From a virus: a DNA stretch of 64,000 bases. Positions 9,065-60,078 of this stretch are shown here, piece after piece (the first letter of the stretch is position 1; every line of letters begins with the position of its first letter). The translations under genes were made by a program, and so were the position numbers. The notes beneath the pieces were generated by a model that was not told where the DNA came from, did not search any database, and saw nothing but the letters and a program-made list of their open reading frames with translations. Location: IMG/VR virus record IMGVR_UViG_3300023174_000002, positions 35,209 through 99,208 of that record. One strand, 5' to 3'.

Positions 9065-12000
9065 TATGCATACCTCGCTACAGAAGCTATAATAGTATAA
9101 ACTCCGCCACTGTCTTTAAGTATTGTAAAAGTATAAACGTCTACGCTGCTTGCACCACCACTGCTGGGTACAATACCGCCTAGCCATTTTATAGAGCTAG
9201 CAGACTGTGCCACACTATCAATACTTAATGCAGCTTGATAGTATGCTGGAGTTCCATTTGATACTAAGTGAACAATAGATAAAGATCTATTATTCGTAGC
9301 TAATAAAGTAGAGACGCCTGTAATGTTTAGGGTCCAATTTGCTGTTGGATTTGCTGTAGTCCACATAATTGGTGCAATAATAGCATTTAGTGTACAATTA
9401 GTGCCATTAGGAGAAGTGGTATTAATAGCAATAATTTCTGTAGGTGCAACAAATAATGATTTATTAAAGGTTTGTAGAGCTGTCCAAGTATACGAAAAAC
9501 TAGGGTCTAAGGCGGTAGAACTTAATACTCCGCCAGTATAACTAAGTGGACCACCAAGTGCTACTGCAGTAAAACCACCAGCACCATTACCTGCAATAAT
9601 ATTACTGCCACTAGTAGGACCGGCAAAATCTGTACCAGCTACAGCTGTAGCAAAAGCAGTACCACTATATTTTACTATTCCTGTACCCCAGCTACTCTTA
9701 CCAGTACCGCCATTAGCTATATTTAATATACCAGTAACACCAGTACCGCCTAGTGGTAATCCTGTTGCATTAGTTAATGTAATAGATGTCGGTGTTCCAA
9801 GAGCAGGACTAACTAGTGTAGCATTACTTGATAAAACTACATTGCCTGTACCTGTAGAACCACTACTTGTGCCTGTACCGCCTTGAGTAGCTGGAAGCTG
9901 CCCAGTAGTCATAGTAGCTAAGTTTACTTTGCCCCATATTGGTGAAGTATTTGCCCCCTGCGTTAATAATACATTACCTGCAGCAGCTGCAGCTAATTTA
10001 CTTAATGCAATATTACTACTTGCATATAACATATCGCCAATTGTATATGCGCTTGTACCACCTTGACCAGTACCGCCTTGAGTAGCAGGTACTATATAAG
10101 TACTTACTAAACTACCGGCACTTCCTGTAGTACTTTGATTTAGTAATGGTACGTCTGCTGCCTGAATTCCTGACATAGTAATATTAGTACCATCTCCACG
10201 CGCATATGTGCCACTAGTAACTACATTATTAAATAACCCATTAATAGCGTTTTGTCTTGTAACCTGACCGGTACCCCCTAAACCAATACCTACAGTACTA
10301 GTTACACTACCAGCACTACCTGTGACGTTTGCACTCAGTGTAAGGCCAGTAAGCATAGCACTAGTAATTGCCGACATAACAGCATTACCTTGAGCATTAA
10401 TTTGTAATACAGTTCCAGCAGTAAGAATATTATTAGTTAACTCATTAATTGCTTTTTGTCTATCACTTTGGCCTGTGCCACCATTAGCAATTGCAACTAT
10501 ACCACTAATACTTCCTGCAGTATTTGCAGTATTTGCAGTAGTTGCATTACCAATAATATTAGCAGTAATAGTAAGACCGTTTAAATCACTAGCTGCAATA
10601 TTAGACATAACTATATTAGCGCCGTCACCTCGTAAATATCTACCTATTGAAGTATTACCAGCTAGGGCATTAATAGCGGCTTGTCTAGTAGTTTGTCCAG
10701 TTCCACCTTGAGTAATTTGTACTGTTTGCAGCACAGTATTAGCCTGTTCTGCAAAAGCTACATTAGCAGTGCCTGAAATAGTACTAACATTACCGGGGCG
10801 CCAAACATTAGCAGCAGCATTGTAGATTAAAATTTGGCCTGTGGTAGCACCAGCAGTATTAGCATCTGTTAAATTACTAAGTTTTGTAGGAACATTGGGT
10901 TTATTAAGTATAACTGCTAAACCTGTAGTAGCGTTCCAGTCACTATTAACTTGTGCTGTTGGAATATTGGGTTTATCTGCTAAATCTGCGTAACTACCAG
11001 TAATTGCCACATTGGCTAAAAGTGGTTTACCTAGTAAATCTGTATAACTACCACTAATTGCAACGTTTGAAAAATAACCTGCAGTATTATAATTAACACT
11101 AGTAATAAGTTTAGCCCAAGGACTCCAACTATTACTTACATCCCTGCGGCTACGTATATAGCCGTCTGCACTTACAGCAACGTTTGCTCCAGTACCTCCA
11201 GTACTAGGCCAAGCAAGGTAAATTTGTCCGTCACCTTCACCACCTAGGGTAAGCATATTTCCAAAAGCAGTTGGATAGTTATTATTGTTGTAGTTACTTC
11301 TTAAACTTAGAATATTTGACGGTTGCGCTGTTCCATTAGCTTCAGCATTAGATCTGCCTAAATTACCAGTACCAGTAACATAACCGCCTATTAAATTAGG
11401 CATAGGCACATCTACCCAGTCAACATCTGTTTCGCCAGCATTAACTCGTAAAAACTTTGTGCCTTTAGTAACATAATTAGGTAACAGATTAATTCTAGCA
11501 TTTGATGCTGTATTAGCACCAGTACCACCATTTGCTACATTTACAATGCCTGTTAGTGCAATGTTTACCTGACTGCTAGTACCACCACTTACTAAATTTT
11601 TTTGTGCAGTAAGTGGTGCAGACGTATTAATTGTAGTTATTACATTTTTAGCATCTATTGGAGCTTCCCAGTAAGAATCAGTTCCAGTATTATCTAAAGT
11701 TAATACCCATCCTGCCATTCCTGCACCAAGTGCAAGTGGCATAATATTTCGTCTAGCATTATCTCTAGTATTAGCATTTGTGCCACCATTAGCTATATTT
11801 AGTATACCAGTAGTTCCAGTATTTAAAGGTAGTCCGGTTGCATTAGTTAATATTGCAAAACTAGGTACTCCAATATTAGGTGTAGTATACCTAGGTATAT
11901 TGCTAGCAGTATTACTACTAGCATTATTAGAAGTATTAGGAACAGAAATAGATGGTGGCGCAGTTAAAACTGGATTAGCAATAATTAAATCATAAAGGAT

Positions 12001-39067: not shown

Positions 39068-39097
39068 ATTATATCACCTTAGGCACCTAAAAGTCAA
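39068..39097 (-). promoter_or_regulatory. sigma70 promoter for plcP-agt/late operon
   Basis: Minus strand TTGACT-18bp-TATAAT. Confidence 0.75.
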
Positions 39098-39177
39098 CAT
39101 AAATTTTTCAGCGCTGGTAAAAATATTCTTGAAATTTGTGGCTAATTGGTGTATAATAGTATTTTTTGGGGATATTT

Positions 39178-39327
39178 ATGTGGCGACTGTGGGCGAAAGC
39201 ATTAGGCGATAAGTATGGTTTAACGGATCGTGAGGCTGACGTAGTTTGCTGGATTAGAACTGCAATTGTGTTGTGCTATCTATTAACAAATTTGGTGATT
39301 GTGTTGGGCGTTGTACACCACTGGTAG
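39178..39327 (+). CDS. Small conserved phage membrane protein (49 aa)
   Basis: Not in the ORF track. MWRLWAKALG...EAD...IRT...HW family seen in aquatic phages; own promoter TTGAAA(39129)-17-TATAAT(39152). Confidence 0.7.
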   Translation: MWRLWAKALGDKYGLTDREADVVCWIRTAIVLCYLLTNLVIVLGVVHHW

Positions 39328-39568
39328 CTGGCACCGAAAGTTTTGGGTAAATTTTTTTAAAGTTGGCCGTGTGGTAGGGCCCTAATCGTTCTATTAAACA
39401 GCACGTCCGATAACCCCCCTGTCTTTTTTATAATGATTATATATTATATATGCATATAATATTATAGCACATAGAGCGACCCCGCGTCAAGTCCCTGGCA
39501 TATAATATTTTCTTATATACTGCGCGCTTCTTATACGAAAACAATCTAACACATTTGCGATTTTGGGC

Positions 39569-39597
39569 TTGCACTCTCGGCTGACTTCCCGTATAAT
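39569..39597 (+). promoter_or_regulatory. Pre-early promoter
   Basis: TTGCAC-17bp-TATAAT. Confidence 0.7.
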
Positions 39598-39743
39598 TCT
39601 TTACATGGACAGAGCAATTACGAAAGGGGAAGCCTACTGACCTTAACTGTGCTTGTTAGCAGTTAATTTAGCAAGCGTCGCAACGCAGGGTTATACGATA
39701 ACTAATCCTGCACGTTAACCTTTATTTACTTTTGGAGAATCGC

Positions 39744-40070
39744 ATGGCTGAGAAAGCAATTAACTATACCCCTGAGCAAACTGCCGCGCTTGTTGCTGAC
39801 TATCGCGATGGTATCAGCGTTGAGCAATTGGCAATGCAATTGGGTAAATCGGTACGCTCGATTGTTGCAAAGTTGTCTCGTGAAGGCGTGTATCAGAAAA
39901 AAGAATACAAAACCAAAACGGGTGAAGCCGTGGTTAAAAAGGATTCTGTTGCTGATGCAATTGGCGCAATCTTGCGCTTGCCTGAGAATGACATTGAATC
40001 GCTCACTAAGGCTAATAAGTCAGCATTAAAGGCAATCTTTGATGCATTGGCTAATTCCAAGCCGATTTAA
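39744..40070 (+). CDS. T5 A2-like DNA-binding protein, paralogue 1
   Basis: NYT.EQT..L...Y...GKSVRSIVAKLSREGVY...ESL.KA pattern of the A2/D3 family; GGAG RBS before ATG 39744. Confidence 0.75.
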   Translation: MAEKAINYTPEQTAALVADYRDGISVEQLAMQLGKSVRSIVAKLSREGVYQKKEYKTKTGEAVVKKDSVADAIGAILRLPENDIESLTKANKSALKAIFDALANSKPI

Positions 40071-40097
40071 ATAAAGGGCGAAAGCCCTTTATTTAAT
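40068..40097. terminator. Intrinsic terminator
   Basis: TAAATAAAGGGC-GAAA-GCCCTTTATTTA hairpin. Confidence 0.75.
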
Positions 40098-40106
40098 TTA
40101 TAACGA

Positions 40107-40240
40107 CCAGGCTGTTGCAAAAAAACAACAGCGCTGGCGCCAAATTATAGCATATAATTTGGGCGCGTGTCAAGGGGGTGGGCGAAAATACAACACTAGG
40201 GAAAACCCCTAGTTGACCTGCTCGATTTTTGGTGTAGAAT
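40107..40240. repeat. Intergenic palindromic cassette, copy 1
   Basis: TGTTG..CAACA palindrome + GGCGCC-AAATTATA..TATAATTT-GGGCGCGTGTCAA + AAAATACAACA-CTAGGGAAAACCCCTAG + forward promoter. Confidence 0.85.
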
Positions 40241-40247
40241 TATGGTC

Positions 40248-40610
40248 ATGGATAAGTCACTAATTCTTCAGCGTGTAACGCAACGAGCCGACAAGGTATG
40301 GCACGACTTTACCTTGTTATATCCTCAATTGATTCGTTTTAATAAACCAACTATTGAATTAAATGGTCGGTTTACTAAAACAGCCGGTCGGTGCTGGATG
40401 GAAACCAATCATATTGAGATTGGGACTAAGTTTGTTATTGCCCATTATGATCAGATTATGGGCGAAACAATTCCGCATGAAATTGCACATCAGGTTGATT
40501 TTAACTTGAATGGCAAACCACGCGGTAATCGTTGGCATGGCCCAACATGGCAAAAGATTATGCAATCTTATGGATTGCCTCCCGAAACTTATCATAGCAT
40601 GGACGTTTGA
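40248..40610 (+). CDS. SprT-like zinc metalloprotease
   Basis: RFTKTAGRC, HEIAH zincin motif, HGPTWQKIM. Confidence 0.85.
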   Translation: MDKSLILQRVTQRADKVWHDFTLLYPQLIRFNKPTIELNGRFTKTAGRCWMETNHIEIGTKFVIAHYDQIMGETIPHEIAHQVDFNLNGKPRGNRWHGPTWQKIMQSYGLPPETYHSMDV

Positions 40611-40817
40611 ATGTTAGCATGGATTGGCACAATCAGCAGTATAATGGGATCGTTCCTTGTTGCTTTCGGCATAATGAATTGGGGTTATATTTGCTTTATT
40701 ACCGGAACCCTATCATGGTTAATTATTGCAATAGCACGCAAAGATAAAGCATTGGGCGTATTAAATGGCGCATTTTTAATTGCCAATATAATCGGAATTG
40801 TTCGTTATGTAATTTAA
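40611..40817 (+). CDS. Small three-helix membrane protein
   Basis: Almost entirely hydrophobic 68 aa. Confidence 0.6.
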   Translation: MLAWIGTISSIMGSFLVAFGIMNWGYICFITGTLSWLIIAIARKDKALGVLNGAFLIANIIGIVRYVI

Positions 40818-40822
40818 TATGA

Positions 40823-40978
40823 CCAGGTGTTGTATTTTTACAACACGCTGGCGCCAAAATTATATCATAATTTTGCGGCCCGTGTCAAGGGGGTGTGCAA
40901 AAATACCACACTAGGGGAAACCCTGCGACACCGTGTCGCACCTTGGGCGCTTGCACAATCCAAAAAACCCTGTATAAT
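40823..40978. repeat. Intergenic palindromic cassette, copy 2
   Basis: GTGTTGTATTTTTACAACAC + GGCGCCAAAATTATATCATAATTTTGCGGCCCGTGTCAA + CTAGGGGAAACCC + TTGCAC..TATAAT. Confidence 0.85.
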
Positions 40979-41004
40979 ACTCTACATGGATCGGAGATAA
41001 AACG

Positions 41005-41175
41005 ATGGCAACTAAACTGCACTTAGCACTGGCAATGAAAAAAGCCAGTAAACCAGATAATCGGGCGCATAAGCCCCTATTTGTGAATAGCCCATTTAAG
41101 CCAAAGGTTATTCCAAATAAAAAGAAAACAAAATTGGCTAAACTTTTTAATGGTTGGGGATTTGGCGATGAATAA
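41005..41175 (+). CDS. Small basic protein, ArfA-like candidate
   Basis: Not in the ORF track. 56 aa with DNRAHKPLFVNSPFKPKVIPNKKK; GGAG RBS. Confidence 0.5.
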   Translation: MATKLHLALAMKKASKPDNRAHKPLFVNSPFKPKVIPNKKKTKLAKLFNGWGFGDE

Positions 41176-41365
41176 ATTTAATTTGATTGAACAGGCCGCA
41201 AGGTTTGAAACGTCGCAATTAACCCGCGACGAATTGATTTACTTTGTAGAATCTGTTAAAATGCACGAGATGATAGAATTGGATTATGAGGGTTTAGTAA
41301 AACGCGTTGAACGTACTGCTAAACACTTGGTTGATGTTGCACGTTTTTTTAACAAAGGAGAATGA
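41168..41365 (+). CDS. Hypothetical pre-early protein
   Basis: ORF overlapping both neighbours. Confidence 0.55.
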   Translation: MNKFNLIEQAARFETSQLTRDELIYFVESVKMHEMIELDYEGLVKRVERTAKHLVDVARFFNKGE

Positions 41366-41547
41366 TTATGTTTATGGCTAAAAGCACTAATGACGAAACC
41401 ATTATGTCAATTGGTAATTCCATTGAGGAAGTCTGGCAAGACTTGCAATTTGGATTTGAATTGACCGATGATGATTTTGAGGATTTAGAGTGGTTTGAGA
41501 TTGAACCAATTACCGTAAAACGTAAATTGGAATTCGTTATTGAATAA
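41362..41547 (+). CDS. Small acidic hypothetical protein
   Basis: AAGGAG RBS; Asp/Glu-rich. Confidence 0.55.
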   Translation: MIMFMAKSTNDETIMSIGNSIEEVWQDLQFGFELTDDDFEDLEWFEIEPITVKRKLEFVIE

Positions 41548-41555
41548 ATAACGAG

Positions 41556-41765
41556 CCAGGGTGTTGTAAATTTACAACACCGCTGGCGCCAATTTTACCA
41601 GTAAAATTGGGCGCGTGTCAACAAAAATTTAAAATTTTTGTGTTGTATTTTTACAACGCTGACCGCGCCAAAATTATACACTAGCCTGGCCCGTGTGTCA
41701 ATAGGGGTTTGTCCCTATGTTGTATTTTCGCAAAACCTGGCACAACCCGATTTTTCGTGTATAAT
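41556..41765. repeat. Intergenic palindromic cassette, tandem copies 3a/3b
   Basis: Two TGTTGTA..TACAAC + GCGCCAA..TGTCAA units, then an inverted TAGGG..CCCTA-TGTTGTATTTT unit. Confidence 0.85.
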
Positions 41766-41772
41766 TCACTAC

Positions 41773-42276
41773 ATGGACACAACGCAGGCAAACAAGATGA
41801 TTAAACGGATCGCAATTTATGACATGGACGGCACTATCGTGGATTCCAGCCACCGTTACCGGACTATTTTAACCGATGCTGGTGAGCGCATTGATATTGG
41901 CTATTGGCGAGACAATCAGCATTTGGCAATGTTGGATGGCTTATTGCCATTGGCTAATAAATTTTGGGATGACTTGGACGATCCAGAATGTTATACTATC
42001 ATTGCGACTGCGCGGGTTATGAATGATCCAGATTGGGAATTTTTGAATACTAAATTGGGTATGCCAGATTATGTTATTTCGCGTACCCGCGATGATCAAC
42101 AATCAGGTTCCACGCTAAAGATTAACGGATTGATTAAATGCTTTGAGACTGTTAATATCAATTTAGATAATCTGCAAGATGTTGTTTTCTATGAGGACAA
42201 TGTAGATTATCTCAAAGCGGTATGCGATTACTTTGGTTTTCGCGGTGTTTATATTCCTAGCAAACAAGGACACTAA
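41773..42276 (+). CDS. HAD-family phosphatase (nucleotidase-like, possible functional counterpart of T5 Dmp)
   Basis: Motif I YDMDGT, motif II ATAR, motif IV FYEDN; the ORF-track 5' extension runs through the repeat. Confidence 0.8.
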   Translation: MDTTQANKMIKRIAIYDMDGTIVDSSHRYRTILTDAGERIDIGYWRDNQHLAMLDGLLPLANKFWDDLDDPECYTIIATARVMNDPDWEFLNTKLGMPDYVISRTRDDQQSGSTLKINGLIKCFETVNINLDNLQDVVFYEDNVDYLKAVCDYFGFRGVYIPSKQGH

Positions 42277-42372
42277 AATGACTAACGGAAACGATCCAGA
42301 CAAAATTGTTTTTTATGCGCTGATTGCTAGCGTTTGTGCGGTTGCTTATCTTGTTTTTACCGGAGCGGTATA

Positions 42373-42744
42373 ATGAAACCATGGAATGAATTAACCCAAT
42401 TGGAGCAGTTGAATTGCATTTATTGGGATGCTTATAAAGAAGCGCATGGTATTCGTCCACGTTGGATTGATACTAGCACTTGGACTGTGGAACAATTCGA
42501 GCGTGAAATTCAGGAATTGTCGGATATTGCCGATCGTGCTAATGCACAACGCAATGCTGATGAATTGGCGGAATTTGAGAATGTAAAAGCCCGCATTCAT
42601 CAATTGCAGGAAATTCACGGTTTCGATTGGAATCAGGCCGTGAATTGGATTGATCAGGAAATGGGTACTAATGGCGACATTAGTTTCCTAGAATTTGAAT
42701 TGGGTATTCCCTACGGTTCGCTTACACTGGAGAATGTGCAATGA
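42373..42744 (+). CDS. Conserved phage hypothetical protein
   Basis: YWDAYKEAHGIRPR motif; GGAG RBS before ATG 42373. Confidence 0.65.
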   Translation: MKPWNELTQLEQLNCIYWDAYKEAHGIRPRWIDTSTWTVEQFEREIQELSDIADRANAQRNADELAEFENVKARIHQLQEIHGFDWNQAVNWIDQEMGTNGDISFLEFELGIPYGSLTLENVQ

Positions 42745-42947
42745 GTTTTTTAAATTACGACATTCTGGATTGTTGTGGTGCTTATGGCCGCAAGGCCAAT
42801 TGGGACGATTGGGTTAATGGCCTAGACTTTAAAATTATTGATGGCCCTTATTTTAGCATTAAAGACTGCAATAAGTTAAGCCAGGAATATGACGAATTGC
42901 ATTTTCGTTCTGCAATGGGAATTGAATTCCGGGTGTATTTAAAATAA
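42741..42947 (+). CDS. Hypothetical protein
   Basis: GAYGR..DW..GLDFKI..GPY.SI motif; ATGA overlap with the previous gene. Confidence 0.6.
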   Translation: MSFLNYDILDCCGAYGRKANWDDWVNGLDFKIIDGPYFSIKDCNKLSQEYDELHFRSAMGIEFRVYLK

Positions 42948-42955
42948 ATAACGAA

Positions 42956-43169
42956 ATGTGTTGTAAAAATACAACACATGGCGCCAAAATTATACCATAA
43001 TTTTGCGGCGCGTGTCAAGAAAAATTTCGTAAATTTTTCGTGCTGTTGTATTTTTACAACAGCTGACGCGCCAAAATTTTACCACCAAAAAATTTTTTTG
43101 TCAATAGGGGAAAACCCCTATGTTGTATTTTTGCACTTCCTGGCACTGGGCGAATTTTCGTGTTATTAT
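42956..43169. repeat. Intergenic palindromic cassette, tandem copies 4a/4b
   Basis: Same organisation as copy 3, including TAGGGGAAAACCCCTA-TGTTGTATTTTTGC. Confidence 0.85.
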
Positions 43170-43208
43170 CTTAACTCGGCGTCTTGCCGTGGCTCACCTT
43201 TACCTATC

Positions 43209-43910
43209 ATGGCCAAAAAGCAGTTTTTCGCAATTCTCGACACCGAAACCACCTGCAATGATACCGTTGCAGATTTTGCAATTGTTATTTGTGATCGTAA
43301 TGGTCGCATTTACAATAAATGCGCGGTATTGGTTCGCAATCATTTTGATGCAATGGATCTTTTTTATGACAAAACAAAACAAAACGGTGAAATGTGGTCG
43401 CGTGAATACGCAAGCAAAAAGCAAACCCAATATTTTGCAATGCTTGATTCAGGTTCGCGGCAATTGGCGTCTATTGCCTCAATCAATGCGTGGATTCAAA
43501 AAGCCATTGGCAAATACAATCCTACATTAACCGCTTACAATCTGGCTTTTGATAAATCAAAATGTGCCAATACCGGAATTGATTTGTCGGGTTTTGCTGA
43601 ATCGTTTTGCCTTTGGCAAGCGGCAATTGGCAATATTTGCAAAAAGCAATATCGTCAATTTGCATTAGACAATCATTTGTTTAATGCTCCGACTAAACAT
43701 GGCAATATGTCCATTAAAACTACTGCTGAATCTGTTTTTGCGTTTTTAAATGGCCAATTTGTTGAAGAGCCACATACTGCATTAGAAGATGCACAAGATT
43801 TTGAATTGCCAATTCTGGTCAATGTTTTAAAACGTCGCAATTGGCGTGACAATATCATTGCACACGATTGGAAAAAATTCCAAGTAAAAGATTTTTACAA
43901 GGCAATCTAA
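43209..43910 (+). CDS. DEDDh 3'-5' exonuclease
   Basis: ExoI LDTETT, ExoII AYNLAFD, ExoIII HTALED; start taken at ATG 43209. Confidence 0.85.
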   Translation: MAKKQFFAILDTETTCNDTVADFAIVICDRNGRIYNKCAVLVRNHFDAMDLFYDKTKQNGEMWSREYASKKQTQYFAMLDSGSRQLASIASINAWIQKAIGKYNPTLTAYNLAFDKSKCANTGIDLSGFAESFCLWQAAIGNICKKQYRQFALDNHLFNAPTKHGNMSIKTTAESVFAFLNGQFVEEPHTALEDAQDFELPILVNVLKRRNWRDNIIAHDWKKFQVKDFYKAI

Positions 43911-43911
43911 A

Positions 43912-44253
43912 ATGGAAAATTTAGCATATTACATTGAATTCTTGGGGCTGAAAAGCCCCGTAGAATTAACGCTTAAAACCAAGTCAAATAAACATTCTGA
44001 TGCTCTTTACTTGCCAAAGTTTAATAATCGCGGCCATTTAAAAGCGCATAAAATTACTGTATTCCTGGGCAATCAAACCCCTAATTCTCGGCGTTCATTG
44101 GATGAATTGATCGCGCACGAATTGATTCACGCTTGGCAACAAGAAAATAACATTGCTGAATTTCACGGACTTAATTTTGTGTTGCAGGCAATTAGACTAG
44201 ACGAAAAATTTGATTTGCCTAATATTTACCTTGCTGAATTAGACGACGAATAA
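43912..44253 (+). CDS. SprT-like zinc metalloprotease, second copy
   Basis: IAHELIHAWQ...HG..F motif. Confidence 0.75.
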   Translation: MENLAYYIEFLGLKSPVELTLKTKSNKHSDALYLPKFNNRGHLKAHKITVFLGNQTPNSRRSLDELIAHELIHAWQQENNIAEFHGLNFVLQAIRLDEKFDLPNIYLAELDDE

Positions 44254-44312
44254 TCTACACTTGATTTTTTTACCTCAACCCGCTATAATATTACTTTACT
44301 GGAGAAAACGCA

Positions 44313-44639
44313 ATGGCTGAAAAGACTGTGAACTATACCCCTGAGCAAACCCTGAACCTTATTGCCGATTACAAAAACGGTTTTACCGTTGAAGAATTGG
44401 CTTTGCAAATGGGCAAATCGGTTCGCTCAATTGTCGCTAAACTTTCCCGTGAGGGTGTTTACGAAAAGAAAACCTATAAAACCAAAACTGGCGAAAAGGT
44501 TGTTAAAAAAGACGCGCACGCTGATGCAATTGGTGCAATCCTGCGATTGCCGGAAAATGACATTGAATCCCTGACCAAAGCCAATAAATCGGCATTGAAA
44601 GCAATTTTCGACGCATTGGCTAATTCAAAACCCATTTAA
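44313..44639 (+). CDS. T5 A2-like DNA-binding protein, paralogue 2
   Basis: About 84% identical to paralogue 1 (17 of 108 residues differ, counted by eye); own promoter at ~44262-44289. Confidence 0.75.
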   Translation: MAEKTVNYTPEQTLNLIADYKNGFTVEELALQMGKSVRSIVAKLSREGVYEKKTYKTKTGEKVVKKDAHADAIGAILRLPENDIESLTKANKSALKAIFDALANSKPI

Positions 44640-44649
44640 TTGGGCGTTT

Positions 44650-44680
44650 AATAAAACCGGCAATTGCCGGTTTTATTTTA
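44650..44680. terminator. Intrinsic terminator
   Basis: ATAAAACCGGCAATTGCCGGTTTTAT perfect palindrome with T-rich tail. Confidence 0.7.
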
Positions 44681-44687
44681 TGTAAAT

Positions 44688-45160
44688 CGTTTTAAAAACA
44701 ATAATAGTTATTGTTTTTAAAACGGCGCCCATTATACTAGTATAATGGGCAACGTGTCAAGGGGTTGTGCAAAAATACAACACTAGGGGAAACCCTAATA
44801 GTCAAACCAAAAACGCACCCATTTACACCCATTTTTTCGTTATAAATTTTGGAACCATATGGCGCCAAAATTGTATCACAATTTTGGGGCGCGTGTCAAG
44901 CGTTTTGCAAAAATACAACATAGGGACTTTCCCTAATAGGGTTTACCCTAACGGCAGATTTTGCCGTTGTTTTTTCACCACAGGCAGATTTTGCCGTTGT
45001 TTTTTCACCACACCGGCAAAATTTTTCTTATAAATTCTGGCACTATGCTGCGGCGCAGCACGACCCCAGGCGCGCTGCGCCAGTGCAAAAACTAGTGCAA
45101 ATTCTTGCAAGTGCTTACGCCTGGATTATACAGTGGTTGAGCTACCCTTGTCAAGTCAAT
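44688..45160. repeat. Repeat/palindrome-dense non-coding block (cassette copies 5-7 and a 30-bp tandem repeat)
   Basis: GGCAGATTTTGCCGTTGTTTTTTCACCACA x2 at 44953-45012; several palindromes; three leftward TTGACA promoters. Confidence 0.8.
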
Positions 45161-45252
45161 ATTTTTAGGCGTGGCACAAGCAAAAATTCAGTGTTGATTC
45201 TGCCCGCTAAAGCCTGTATAATATATTCTTAAGTTGATGAGGGAAACCAAAC

Positions 45253-45378
45253 ATGACAGACTTTCAAAGTGATCAAGAAGAATGGTGGCTAGATTGGAAA
45301 GACGAACATTTCGATTATCCTCAGTATCCGCAAAGCACGCCAGACCCTAGTAATTTTGATCTTGATATTCCCTACTGA
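45253..45378 (+). CDS. 41-aa acidic peptide ending in NFDLDIPY
   Basis: Not in the ORF track. Promoter TTGATT(45194)-17-TATAAT(45217), GAGGG RBS. Confidence 0.55.
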   Translation: MTDFQSDQEEWWLDWKDEHFDYPQYPQSTPDPSNFDLDIPY

Positions 45379-45430
45379 ACCCTGTATAATAGAATCTTCA
45401 ACAGCGCAGAAACCGAAACACAAAGGACAT

Positions 45431-45742
45431 ATGATGACTGACAAAACTGTAAATTACACCGCAGAACAAACCGCTCAAATTATCGGACTTTACACCACGG
45501 GTAACTCTGTGGAAATGATCGCCGAGCAGGTTGGCAAATCTGTGCGGTCGATTGTGGCAAAGCTCTCCCGTGAGGGAGTGTACATCCCCAAGACCGCGGC
45601 TAAGGGTCAGGGCCGGGTTACCAAGGCCGACCTGATCGGTCGCCTTGCCAACAAGTTTGCGATTGACGCTACCGAAATCGCTAGCCTTGAAAAAGCTGGT
45701 ATGGGTGCCCTAGAGCTCTTGGTATCCAAAGCCGGGGCATGA
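45431..45742 (+). CDS. A2/D3-family DNA-binding protein, paralogue 3
   Basis: NYTAEQT...GKSVRSIVAKLSREGVY...ASLEKA; AAGGA RBS; promoter TTGATA(45362)-17-TATAAT(45385). Confidence 0.75.
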   Translation: MMTDKTVNYTAEQTAQIIGLYTTGNSVEMIAEQVGKSVRSIVAKLSREGVYIPKTAAKGQGRVTKADLIGRLANKFAIDATEIASLEKAGMGALELLVSKAGA

Positions 45743-45802
45743 TCAACTGGGGAGAAGAAATTCTGACTTGATTCTTCTCCCCAAACCCTGTATAATATTA
45801 TT

Positions 45803-46445
45803 ATAGACAGTTAGGAAAGAGCTTATCTGAAAGGACAAAGCGCAGATACCGGCATCACGTACCACTACCCCGCCCGCAAGCATATGTATAGCTAGCAATT
45901 TGTAGTGCCAAGTACACGGCCGACGACTGTTTGTCTCAGTGGGTGACAGCGGCGCGTTACATATGCTGGCGTCTTAATTGTGGGGAATTTATGTTAAAGC
46001 CGAGCCACAGCCCTGAGCAGTTTACTCGATTTGTGATTTTAGTCACAAGTCTATTTTAGTGGCTAGTCTATTTTATTAGCTAGTCTTTTTACGAAATCCT
46101 GGACCCTAAGGTTCGCAACCCAGATGGCTACCAGGTGGTTGTAAATACCAAAACTTACCAAGTTGTCTAGAACTTGTAAATAACTTAGACAGTGTTCTTC
46201 CGGGACTTTACGAGAAGTGTGCAACTAGAGCAGTGCTGTCTAGCGGTTAGGCCCGCTAGTAAAAATATAGGCCCAGGGTTGATGACGTAGTGTGCTAGCG
46301 TTTGCGCTAGTTGCTCTGCCAGACCCTACCGCGGAATGACAGGTCGCTGTAGCAGACAAGCTCTGTGAAAACCACGTCAAACCTGCATTAAAAACTTCTC
46401 GAGAGTTCAAAAACCCGCAAGGCGACGGCCTTTGGCGGGTTTTTG
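45803..46445 (+). ncRNA. Candidate large structured non-coding RNA (~640 nt)
   Basis: Promoter TTGATT(45768)-17-TATAAT(45791), terminator at 46409-46445, no + strand ORF in the track, many complementary helices. Confidence 0.6.
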
Positions 46446-46446
46446 T
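46408..46446. terminator. Bidirectional intrinsic terminator
   Basis: CAAAAACCCGC...GCGGGTTTTTG. Confidence 0.8.
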
Positions 46447-46621
46447 TTGCGTACAGTATTTACCACAAAAAATATGGTCTTGCGCCAATATTATACAGTG
46501 CTAAATCTAATTTGTCAACAGTAAATTTTTATTTCTGACCCTAAGCCACAGCAAGCAGTCACCCAACAAAAAGCCCCACACAACTTGCGCTGATAGGGGC
46601 GATTTAGGGTCAGATTTGAGA

Positions 46622-59403: not shown

Positions 59404-60078
59404 ATGAAAAAATCATTAGAAATTTTTTGCCTACACTGGGATAATATAGATCCTAGAATGATGACAGCACATAAAGCTGTAATGAAACATTTTGAGATTC
59501 CAGTAACCTACCACGGTATTAATATGGACCATGGTACATGGATGACTAAAATTATGGAAGTAAGTGAGGCGGATGTGGTAGCTTTTATAGAACCAGACTG
59601 TATCCCCATCAATAAAACCAAATTTTTAGAGTGCGTTCACTATGCTATTGGTAATGATACCTTTTGCGGTATTGCACAGGCTAGCAACCACCTAGAACCA
59701 AAAAATCATATTTATGCAGCACCTGGATTTTTTGTAATTACAAAAAGTGTATATAACAGGTTAGATAAACCACAATTTTTATGCACTTTTCGTAGCGATA
59801 CTGGCGAAGAAGTTAGTTGGGCTGCTGAACATAAAGACATTAGCTACAGAGTAATTTTACCTACGCATTATGAAAAACCTTCTAAAGAAGGCATTTGGAA
59901 TCTTGGTCCGTTAGGACAATATGGAATTGGTACTGTATTTGATAATACAGTATATCATCTATATCAAGGTCGTTATAATGATAACGTAGAATTATTTGTT
60001 AAACGTTGTAACGAAGTTATTGCAGGCACTTTTAGTACTGCTGGTTTTAAAAAGTGTATGACACTAACAGGAGAGTAA
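59404..60078 (+). CDS. Putative GT-A fold glycosyltransferase
   Basis: F.E.DCIP DxD-like motif, HIYAAPGF, RSDTGEE, YHLYQ; true start follows the tRNA. Confidence 0.55.
   Translation: MKKSLEIFCLHWDNIDPRMMTAHKAVMKHFEIPVTYHGINMDHGTWMTKIMEVSEADVVAFIEPDCIPINKTKFLECVHYAIGNDTFCGIAQASNHLEPKNHIYAAPGFFVITKSVYNRLDKPQFLCTFRSDTGEEVSWAAEHKDISYRVILPTHYEKPSKEGIWNLGPLGQYGIGTVFDNTVYHLYQGRYNDNVELFVKRCNEVIAGTFSTAGFKKCMTLTGE

Follow-up and report, generated by a model that had tools for sequence, protein, structure and literature searches.

The 64,000-nucleotide (nt) stretch of DNA analysed here, referred to as the window, comprises bases 35209-99208 of the 99,208-bp phage contig IMGVR_UViG_3300023174_000002 and carries on its minus strand an array of consensus promoters that point against a block of rightward genes resembling the pre-early region of phage T5. 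From their sequence we infer that these are genuine initiation sites for the sigma70-type RNA polymerase of the host, and they are almost certainly functional. The reading that we favour, with a probability of about 0.4 for the full statement, is that the promoters lie convergently in the 3′ untranslated regions (UTRs) of pre-early-type transcription units and would give rise to hairpin-capped antisense RNAs that damp or shut off these units in a supercoiling-gated manner.

An earlier interpretation made from the letters alone (the sequence-only reading) had listed eleven antisense sites between 39461 and 46518, and a consensus scan recovered all of them at the same coordinates on the minus strand. 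Scoring was against the sigma70-type consensus; seven sites matched at 12/12 positions (-35 boxes at 46518-46513, 45154-45149, 44760-44755, 43018-43013, 41701-41696, 40888-40883 and 40173-40168) and four at 11/12 (44899, 43104, 41621 and, with TTGACG, 39490). Within 39461-46518 (7,058 bp) the pattern TTGACA-17/18-TAnAAT occurs ten times on the minus strand and never on the plus strand, as compared to an expectation of 0.009 per strand under a first-order Markov model (Poisson P ~1e-27), while the other 92 kb of the genome hold two copies on the minus and two on the plus strand. Since ten matches stand against 0.009 expected, and since the accessory motifs (of the palindrome, hairpin and T-tract types) occur only between 40.1 and 45.0 kb in the 99-kb genome, a chance origin of the array is excluded. 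Tandem antisense copies are present at 41.6/41.7, 43.0/43.1 and 44.7/44.9 kb, and in the window the promoters lie 42-92 nt from the 3′ end of the opposing sense gene. The minus-strand open reading frames (ORFs) past the promoters are short and begin upstream of the predicted start sites. A twelfth site, 39068-39097 on the minus strand (TTGACT-18-(TG)TATAAT), serves the leftward operon as its ordinary promoter; the first gene of that operon encodes a metallophosphoesterase (39045-38260). The site has the 18-nt spacer and TGn of the array, but neither GGCGC nor a palindrome.

Shared anatomy of the cassettes

Along the promoter strand the cassettes follow one order: a TAGGnG..CnCCTA hairpin with a T-rich tract, the -35 box TTGACA, an 18-nt spacer ending in TGn, the -10 box, 0-4 A/T bases, GGCGC(C) and then, at about +1, a perfect hairpin designated H1; within this window the TAGGnG..CnCCTA block is found in either orientation. 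The sequence-only reading had placed most -10 boxes inside palindromes of their own, had seen six promoters firing into TGTTGTA/TACAACA-type hairpins and had noted a TAGGG..CCCTA hairpin separating them from the forward promoters, and each of these features was found. The palindrome (P) is perfect over 9-12 bp at six of the eleven sites (40173, 40888, 41621, 43018, 44760 and 44899), where the spacer exactly complements the -10 box plus discriminator and TGn forms the 3-nt loop; promoters 41701 and 43104 have the right half only, and 45154, 46518 and 39490 have no palindrome. The TGTTGTA/TACAACA-type hairpin lies directly downstream of six promoters, that of 40173 being a CTGTTG variant, and the TAGGG..CCCTA hairpin between antisense and forward promoters is accompanied by a TGTTGTATTTTT tract. 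H1 abuts the palindrome and, in three cassettes, ends at a distance of 6-10 nt from the sense-gene stop codon; the two elements fold as neighbouring twin hairpins, with DNA folding energies of -17 to -24 kcal/mol and z values of -5 to -9.7. The predicted RNAs, with a start 7 nt past the -10 box, begin within, or 0-3 nt from, a stem of 10-13 bp; a flush 5′ stem of this kind reportedly protects RNA against 5′-end-dependent decay (the work of Emory, Bouvet and Belasco in 1992).

The same anatomy was evident in related phages, for which counts were taken over unique sequences, instances from related contigs not being independent. A perfect stem of at least 8 bp around the -10 box was present in 348 of 599 unique promoters (58%) and in none of the shuffled controls. 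The arms of P occur as 95 distinct sequences whose changes are matched on both sides, a covariation established by a per-site search, as the palindrome centre shifts and a fixed-register analysis is uninformative. Palindromic promoters were antisense in 345 instances and ahead of a same-strand ORF in 30. H1 comprised 240 distinct stems with 2.3% internal mismatches (A.C 22 versus G.T 8) and began 5-9 nt past the -10 box in the largest class. Because most H1 pairs within one genome (79%) have no 7-mer in common, H1 does not appear to be a common operator, and the TGTTGTA repeat is particular to this lineage. In the sense mRNA, H1 probably acts as the 3′ hairpin as well. Strict intrinsic terminators were found within 120-200 nt of ~28-31% of the antisense promoters as compared to 5-9% of controls (28% versus 5% within 120 nt). 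No sequence conservation past the promoter was found in the relatives, and the search of Rfam yielded no family at the gathering threshold and, at E up to 1, only chance hairpin matches.

Conservation in related phages

An exact 20-base pattern consisting of the promoter and GGCGC matches more than 119 IMG/VR contigs, and a search with the A2-like helix-turn-helix (HTH) protein encoded in the block adds 78 further distinct loci (72-98% identity). At the loci fetched by protein, 403 of 423 consensus promoters are on the strand opposite to that of the A2 gene. To avoid circularity, loci fetched by protein were anchored on TnnnnT-N0-4-GGCGC only, with the -35 box left out of the anchor: where the -10 box matched at 6/6 (n=277), the -35 box was 6/6 in 230 and 5/6 in 41, the spacer was 18 nt in 310 and 17 nt in 38 of 351 promoters, in keeping with the 17 ± 1 nt of sigma70-type promoters, and all 351 were antisense to the A2 gene. 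The sequence-only reading had named conservation of the -35/-10 spacing in relatives as a test, and the hexamers, the 18-nt spacing and the antisense orientation proved almost invariant in more than 100 contigs. In total, 648 of 930 promoters are directed into the 3′ end of an ORF on the opposite strand, the median distance being 100 nt; distances to stop codons are upper bounds, as the ORFs of the relatives were called crudely (ATG start, at least 60 amino acids). In five complete relatives the promoters are all antisense and are gathered within 5-10 kb around dmp, and this holds for the one whose Dmp is only 44% identical. Given that an orthologous intergenic site holds a cassette in only ~60% of relatives, the cassettes are gained and lost.

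A sense promoter was detected within 260 nt behind 62% of the antisense promoters (control 34%), with the -35 to -35 gap of such back-to-back pairs peaking at 30-60 nt. Between the antisense promoter and the sense promoter 30-60 nt behind it there is a block, TGTCAA-TAGGnG-N4-CnCCTA-TGTTGTATTTTTGCAC, whose sequence and exact spacing are conserved in 61 cases and which is usually sense-oriented. The two promoter classes differ in composition: GGCG follows the -10 box in 94-96% of antisense promoters versus 31% of non-palindromic promoters facing a same-strand gene, the discriminator, taken as the 5 nt centred on -2, has a G+C content of 0.84 in antisense promoters versus 0.41 in their sense partners, and the sense partners have weak -35 boxes and spacers centred on 17 nt, as against 18 nt for the antisense ones. 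Forquet et al. reported that a G+C-rich discriminator and a long spacer each promote expression when negative supercoiling is high and are unfavourable when the DNA is relaxed (PMC8422995, PMC9303308). As the antisense promoters combine 18 nt with a G+C-rich discriminator and the sense promoters ~17 nt with an A+T-rich one, supercoiling gating is predicted.

Individual cassettes and adjoining sequence

The elements of the array and the sequences that adjoin them are as follows.

39461..39490, minus strand: outlier, TTGACG-18-TATAAT with an A/T-rich discriminator, without GGCGC and without palindrome
40073..40095, bidirectional: intrinsic terminator past A2-like gene 1, read from the sequence
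40107..40173, minus strand: cassette A, -35 40173-40168, -10 40149-40144, 12/12, 18-nt spacer, TGn; P 40140-40162, GGCGCC discriminator, H1 40111-40132 (extended 40107-40137)
40195..40240: minus-oriented hairpin and T-tract block (40213-40195), directly adjoining a forward promoter (40213-40240)
40823..40888, minus strand: cassette B, -35 40888-40883, -10 40864-40859, 12/12; P 40855-40875, H1 40827-40846 (extended 40823-40851)
41560..41621, minus strand: cassette C1, -35 41621-41616, -10 TAAAAT 41597-41592; P with compensated arms 41589-41610, H1 41560-41581
41641..41701, minus strand: cassette C2, in tandem with C1, -35 41701-41696, -10 41678-41673, 12/12, 17-nt spacer; H1 41641-41658, full palindrome absent
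41701..41765, plus strand: conserved block between back-to-back promoters, short hairpin 41702-41717, T-rich tract TGTTGTATTTT, forward promoter 41737-41765
42956..43018, minus strand: cassette D1, -35 43018-43013, -10 42994-42989, 12/12; P 42985-43005, H1 42956-42979, then a U-rich tail
43044..43104, minus strand: cassette D2, in tandem with D1, -35 43104-43099, -10 TAAAAT 43081-43076, H1 43044-43061
43104..43169, plus strand: conserved block, as at 41701..41765, between back-to-back promoters, hairpin 43105-43120 and T-rich tract, forward promoter 43140-43169
44688..44760, minus strand: cassette E1, -35 44760-44755, -10 44736-44731, 12/12; P 44727-44750 with quite different arms, 17-bp H1 44688-44724, fold z -9.7
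44865..44899, minus strand: cassette E2, -35 44899-44894, -10 TACAAT 44875-44870, P 44865-44887
45125..45154, minus strand: promoter F, 12/12, 18-nt spacer, non-palindromic
46408..46518, minus strand: promoter G, 12/12, 17-nt spacer, GGCGC past the -10 box, then a bidirectional terminator 46412-46446

The DNA of cassette A folds at -18.2 kcal/mol (z -5.0), and its antisense RNA is predicted to be stopped at ~60-75 nt by the terminator at 40073-40095; an RNA of ~75 nt is likewise predicted for promoter G. The H1 of cassette B begins 6 nt beyond the stop codon at 40817, and the predicted RNA start lies inside a 13-bp stem. Past cassette E1 there is a bidirectional terminator, downstream of A2-like gene 2. 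In the palindrome of cassette E2 (44865-44887) TACAAT pairs with ATTGTA, the opposite arm being altered to match the C. Non-palindromic promoters akin to promoter F, with a ..CACTG spacer end, recur among the relatives. By eye, the palindromes of cassettes A and B yield a TATAAT-like hexamer on the sense strand as well, without a -35 box or TGn; symmetric bidirectional promoters have been described in which one pseudo-symmetric site holds functional elements on both strands (PMC12825309).

Some further observations were made in the adjoining sequence. An exact tandem duplication of ~30 bp (44949-45012) lies to the right of cassette E2 beside two TAGGG..CCCTA hairpins, each copy carrying a terminator-like hairpin with a T-run. 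Between a strong plus-strand promoter (45768-45796) and the terminator at 46412-46446, the region 45768-46446 contains ~640 nt without a credible ORF; it has three ~12-nt direct repeats near 46050-46090 and gave no match to Rfam even at E up to 1. The sequence TACATGGA occurs downstream of three forward promoters in the block (39602, 40983 and 41770), with a fourth copy at 59535, and these copies put an ATG ~7 nt past the forward -10 box.

The gene block and its likeness to the T5 pre-early region

The ends of the contig overlap by 116 bp, and its fused protease and major capsid protein has ~32% identity to that of T5-like phages (Demerecviridae). The phage is a distant, uncultured relative of T5; all relatives closer than the T5-like phages are metagenomic. 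The minus strand from 1 to 39045 carries late genes and is followed by an island of rightward (plus-strand) genes at 39166-45742; to the right of the island lie ~0.85 kb of non-coding DNA, then leftward genes and then a transfer RNA region. The HAD hydrolase encoded at 41797..42276 (plus strand) is a homologue of the T5 pre-early protein Dmp (E 1e-12, 33% identity over 88 amino acids), and its sole relatives in the phage database are the dmp genes within the terminal repeats of T5-type phages. The A2-like HTH gene (44313..44639, plus strand) has paralogues at 39744-40070 and 45431-45742, and its A2 label is a weak one (E 0.007 versus T5 A2; PHROG 1725 at 1e-6). Two SprT-like genes are also encoded. 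The island is read as the counterpart of the T5 pre-early region because the Dmp homologue and the A2-like HTH paralogues are present. An ATG at 41773, in the reading frame of the Dmp homologue, may be a leaderless start lying 8 codons upstream of 41797. Searches against 50,697 phage records gave no match either for the region by megablast or for the A2-like protein by tblastn. In two of the complete relatives (G002 and G005) the contig ends fall inside the dmp/A2 block, and several further contigs stop within a few kb of the A2-like gene; assemblies may break there because of the repeated cassettes or because a terminal repeat has been collapsed.

Discussion

According to the favoured reading, promoters within the 3′ untranslated ends of the rightward pre-early-type units would fire convergently against those units, producing antisense RNAs that would open with a flush 5′ stem-loop, and should hence be stable, and that would run back across the 3′ hairpin of the sense mRNA and often into the coding end. 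About one third of these RNAs would end at a terminator within 60-120 nt and the others would enter the sense gene, so that pre-early expression may be lowered or shut off through polymerase collision and through pairing with the 3′ end of the sense mRNA. The OOP RNA of phage lambda pairs with the 3′ end of the cII mRNA and in this way acts against cII. The sense promoters would be active on relaxed DNA that has just been injected, with the antisense ones taking over once it is negatively supercoiled; this takeover would time pre-early shut-off by holding back antisense transcription until topological closure of the DNA. Antisense promoters at the 3′ ends of genes are a studied means of tuning gene expression in E. 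coli (PMC4731013), and polymerase collision from convergent promoters is dealt with in PMC4731013 and PMC5001618. Among the four functions proposed by the sequence-only reading (short hairpin small RNAs, polymerase decoys, antisense shut-off of pre-early genes and an operator array for the A2 paralogues), antisense shut-off would appear to fit the data best.

Several observations weigh against this reading. In cassettes A and E1 a bidirectional terminator stands between promoter and gene, and the ~30% of RNAs with a strict terminator within 200 nt would overlap the 3′ end of the mRNA only. The sense-strand RNA of H1 is the slightly more stable one (248 versus 174 cases, P 1e-6), because of which H1 may serve the sense mRNA first. 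Promoters firing from entry onward would oppose the genes that are needed first, and the supercoiling gate, which would resolve this conflict, is a prediction. Moreover, dmp is single-copy in the five complete relatives, from which the boundaries of a terminal repeat could not be set. Finally, antisense control does not account for the requirement that the -10 box lie in a palindrome, for which the predicted formation of a cruciform or hairpin is the sole explanation among the readings considered here. In a bolder variant, which we regard as unlikely, the array would be a protein-free topological timer through which the phage senses the state of its own DNA and flips the pre-early block from sense to antisense. 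Each unit boundary would then hold a sense promoter (~17-nt spacer, A+T-rich discriminator, UP-like tract) suited to relaxed DNA and, back to back with it, an antisense promoter (18-nt spacer, GGCGC discriminator) suited to strongly negatively supercoiled DNA, the two states being freshly injected, torsionally free DNA and fully entered, supercoiled DNA; extrusion of the -10 palindrome into a cruciform could then cap the activity of the antisense promoter.

Other explanations place the function of the promoters elsewhere than in antisense RNA. It is conceivable, if somewhat unlikely, that tight binding of RNA polymerase itself matters, the sites either ending sense transcription at each unit boundary, in the manner of a head-on roadblock or insulator, or serving as a sink by which polymerase is diverted from host promoters. 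All four recognition elements at consensus, an RNA whose sequence is free and which is sometimes very short, the tandem copies in the window and several sense units without a U-tract terminator ahead of the cassette would all suit such occupancy devices; however, G+C-rich discriminators usually result in short-lived open complexes (PMC8422995), and hence poor roadblocks, ten sites per genome would be a weak sink early in infection, most relatives already have the hairpin and T-tract block just past the promoter in the sense direction, and the conserved flush 5′ hairpin would have no role. The narrow -35/-35 gap, the joining block with its exact spacing and the weak -35 boxes of the sense partners are also what would be expected if antisense firing generated local negative supercoiling that aids the sense promoter of the next unit on torsionally free, linear injected DNA. 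We consider such divergent-promoter coupling decidedly unlikely, as a sense partner is detectable within 260 nt for only 62% of the promoters, the tandem copies and the terminal ones (45154 and 46518) have no partner, and the A+T-rich discriminators of the sense promoters need supercoiling least. The late genes (1-39045) are all on the minus strand directly downstream of the array, and the late operon promoter at 39097 shares its 18-nt, TGn style, so that with a phage antiterminator the promoters might feed the 39-kb leftward late operon by read-through late in infection while silencing the pre-early genes; this is improbable given that terminators intervene (40073-40095 and the minus-oriented hairpin and T-tract blocks), that no antiterminator is known here and that the late operon has its own promoters.

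Comparably improbable is the proposal that the palindromes bind the A2-like HTH paralogues, or another dimer, and thereby control the promoters or DNA entry. Three or four HTH paralogues are indeed encoded within the block and the palindrome overlaps the -10 box, a classic repressor position; yet the matched variation of the P arms, together with H1 sequences that differ between cassettes of one genome, fits base pairing and not the half-site of one protein, and the specific suggestion of an operator array for the A2 paralogues on TGTTGTA..TACAACA is weakened accordingly. The TAGGnG-N4-CnCCTA-TGTTGTATTTTTGCAC block, being sequence-conserved family-wide, would be the better operator candidate. 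There is a very small chance that the twin palindromes mark nick, cruciform or recombination sites and that the promoter is secondary: G^GCGC (^ marking the nick) in the start region agrees with NPu^GCGCN, the consensus that the T5 record gives for minus-strand nicks, GGCG is enriched past the antisense -10 boxes, and the contigs of relatives often break in the region. The T5 7.9% nick (A^GCGC; region 9690-9810) also lies beside a palindrome, of 18 bp, which follows it directly. A 5-nt match is nevertheless weak evidence, the near-invariant -35 box, spacer and -10 box would be left unexplained, and the four annotated major nicks of T5 share a longer, unrelated motif, cgtaa(t/c)-N22-25-Pu^GCGC(A/G)GG with its cgtaa(t/c) part ~30 nt upstream of the nick, which is not promoter-like and whose context is absent from the cassettes. 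Equally remote is a family of small RNAs acting in trans on host or phage transcripts. Promoter-to-terminator units of 60-100 nt are present at 40173, 44760 and 46518, and the short hairpin RNAs of the sequence-only reading would be partly right in that the RNAs would begin with a hairpin, but only ~30% have a strict terminator within 200 nt, and the free hairpin sequences, the lack of conserved sequence past the promoter and the absence of an Rfam match argue against sequence-specific action in trans.

A number of other candidates were set aside. A T7-like, transcription-driven motor for DNA entry is disfavoured since, given a T5-like order (late, pre-early, early), the promoters would aim at the leading end. 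GCTGGCGC was considered as a Chi-like element and not retained, as GGCGC alone is conserved in the relatives, and a Fur-box-like palindrome, sigma54 (CTGGCAC) and, for the conserved block, IHF showed no fit to the respective consensus sequences. The position of the -35 box outside the palindrome led us to reject single-strand promoter mimics (Frpo, M13 ori), and a mobile element resembling a miniature inverted-repeat transposable element was rejected because the hairpins are variable while the promoter is conserved.

The closest parallel to the favoured antisense reading is the pO promoter of lambda, which is likewise situated just past the 3′ end of its target gene and aimed back at it, and whose short non-coding RNA covers the 3′ end of the mRNA; according to Krinke and Wulff (1987/1990), OOP antisense RNA transcribed from pO reportedly brings about RNase III-dependent loss of the target mRNA. 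In lambda there is a single copy of ordinary strength, whereas the array has 8-11 consensus copies in each genome (one for every transcription unit), and a copy comprises a palindromic -10 box, a GGCGC discriminator and a flush 5′ hairpin. PeSL promoters drive the downstream gene in the sense direction, whereas those of the array are antisense (351/351). The PeSL cassettes of T4-type phages are also short composite promoter and hairpin motifs (PMC2839356, PMC4122927); no sequence relationship between them and the array was seen. The array is itself repeated between variable small early genes and differs in presence or absence among relatives. The likeness to the T5 pre-early (first-step-transfer) region consists of the Dmp homologue, the A2-like gene, the position between late and early blocks and the many strong sigma70 promoters; in T5, however, the annotated promoters are on the same strand as the adjacent genes, and its left terminal repeat contains neither a 12/12 promoter nor an antisense array. 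The rrn P1 promoters also have a consensus -10 box followed by a GCGC-type discriminator, but with a 16-nt spacer and an imperfect -35 box, as against 18 nt and consensus at all elements in the array. The cruciform-regulated synthetic promoter of Horwitz and Loeb (1988), said to have been selected in the laboratory, resembles the array in having its -10 region in a palindrome that could extrude under negative supercoiling and so switch the promoter; the palindrome of the array is natural and conserved, and its extrusion is predicted only. The consensus, multi-copy antisense design of the array, with its palindromic -10 box, was not found described in a limited search of the literature.

The mechanisms by which T5-like phages switch off their pre-early genes are unknown (PMC7472727), and the array suggests a concrete answer in the form of convergent consensus promoters in every 3′ UTR. 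The architecture is unusual in that it unites all consensus elements, an 18-nt spacer, a G+C-rich discriminator and a -10 box within a covarying palindrome, which makes the array a natural test case for models of supercoiling- or cruciform-sensitive initiation and a possible source of compact parts with which to build synthetic antisense control. The branch of the T5-like group that carries this unusually regular array of cis-elements, by which its pre-early genes may be opposed, is large, abundant and uncultured.

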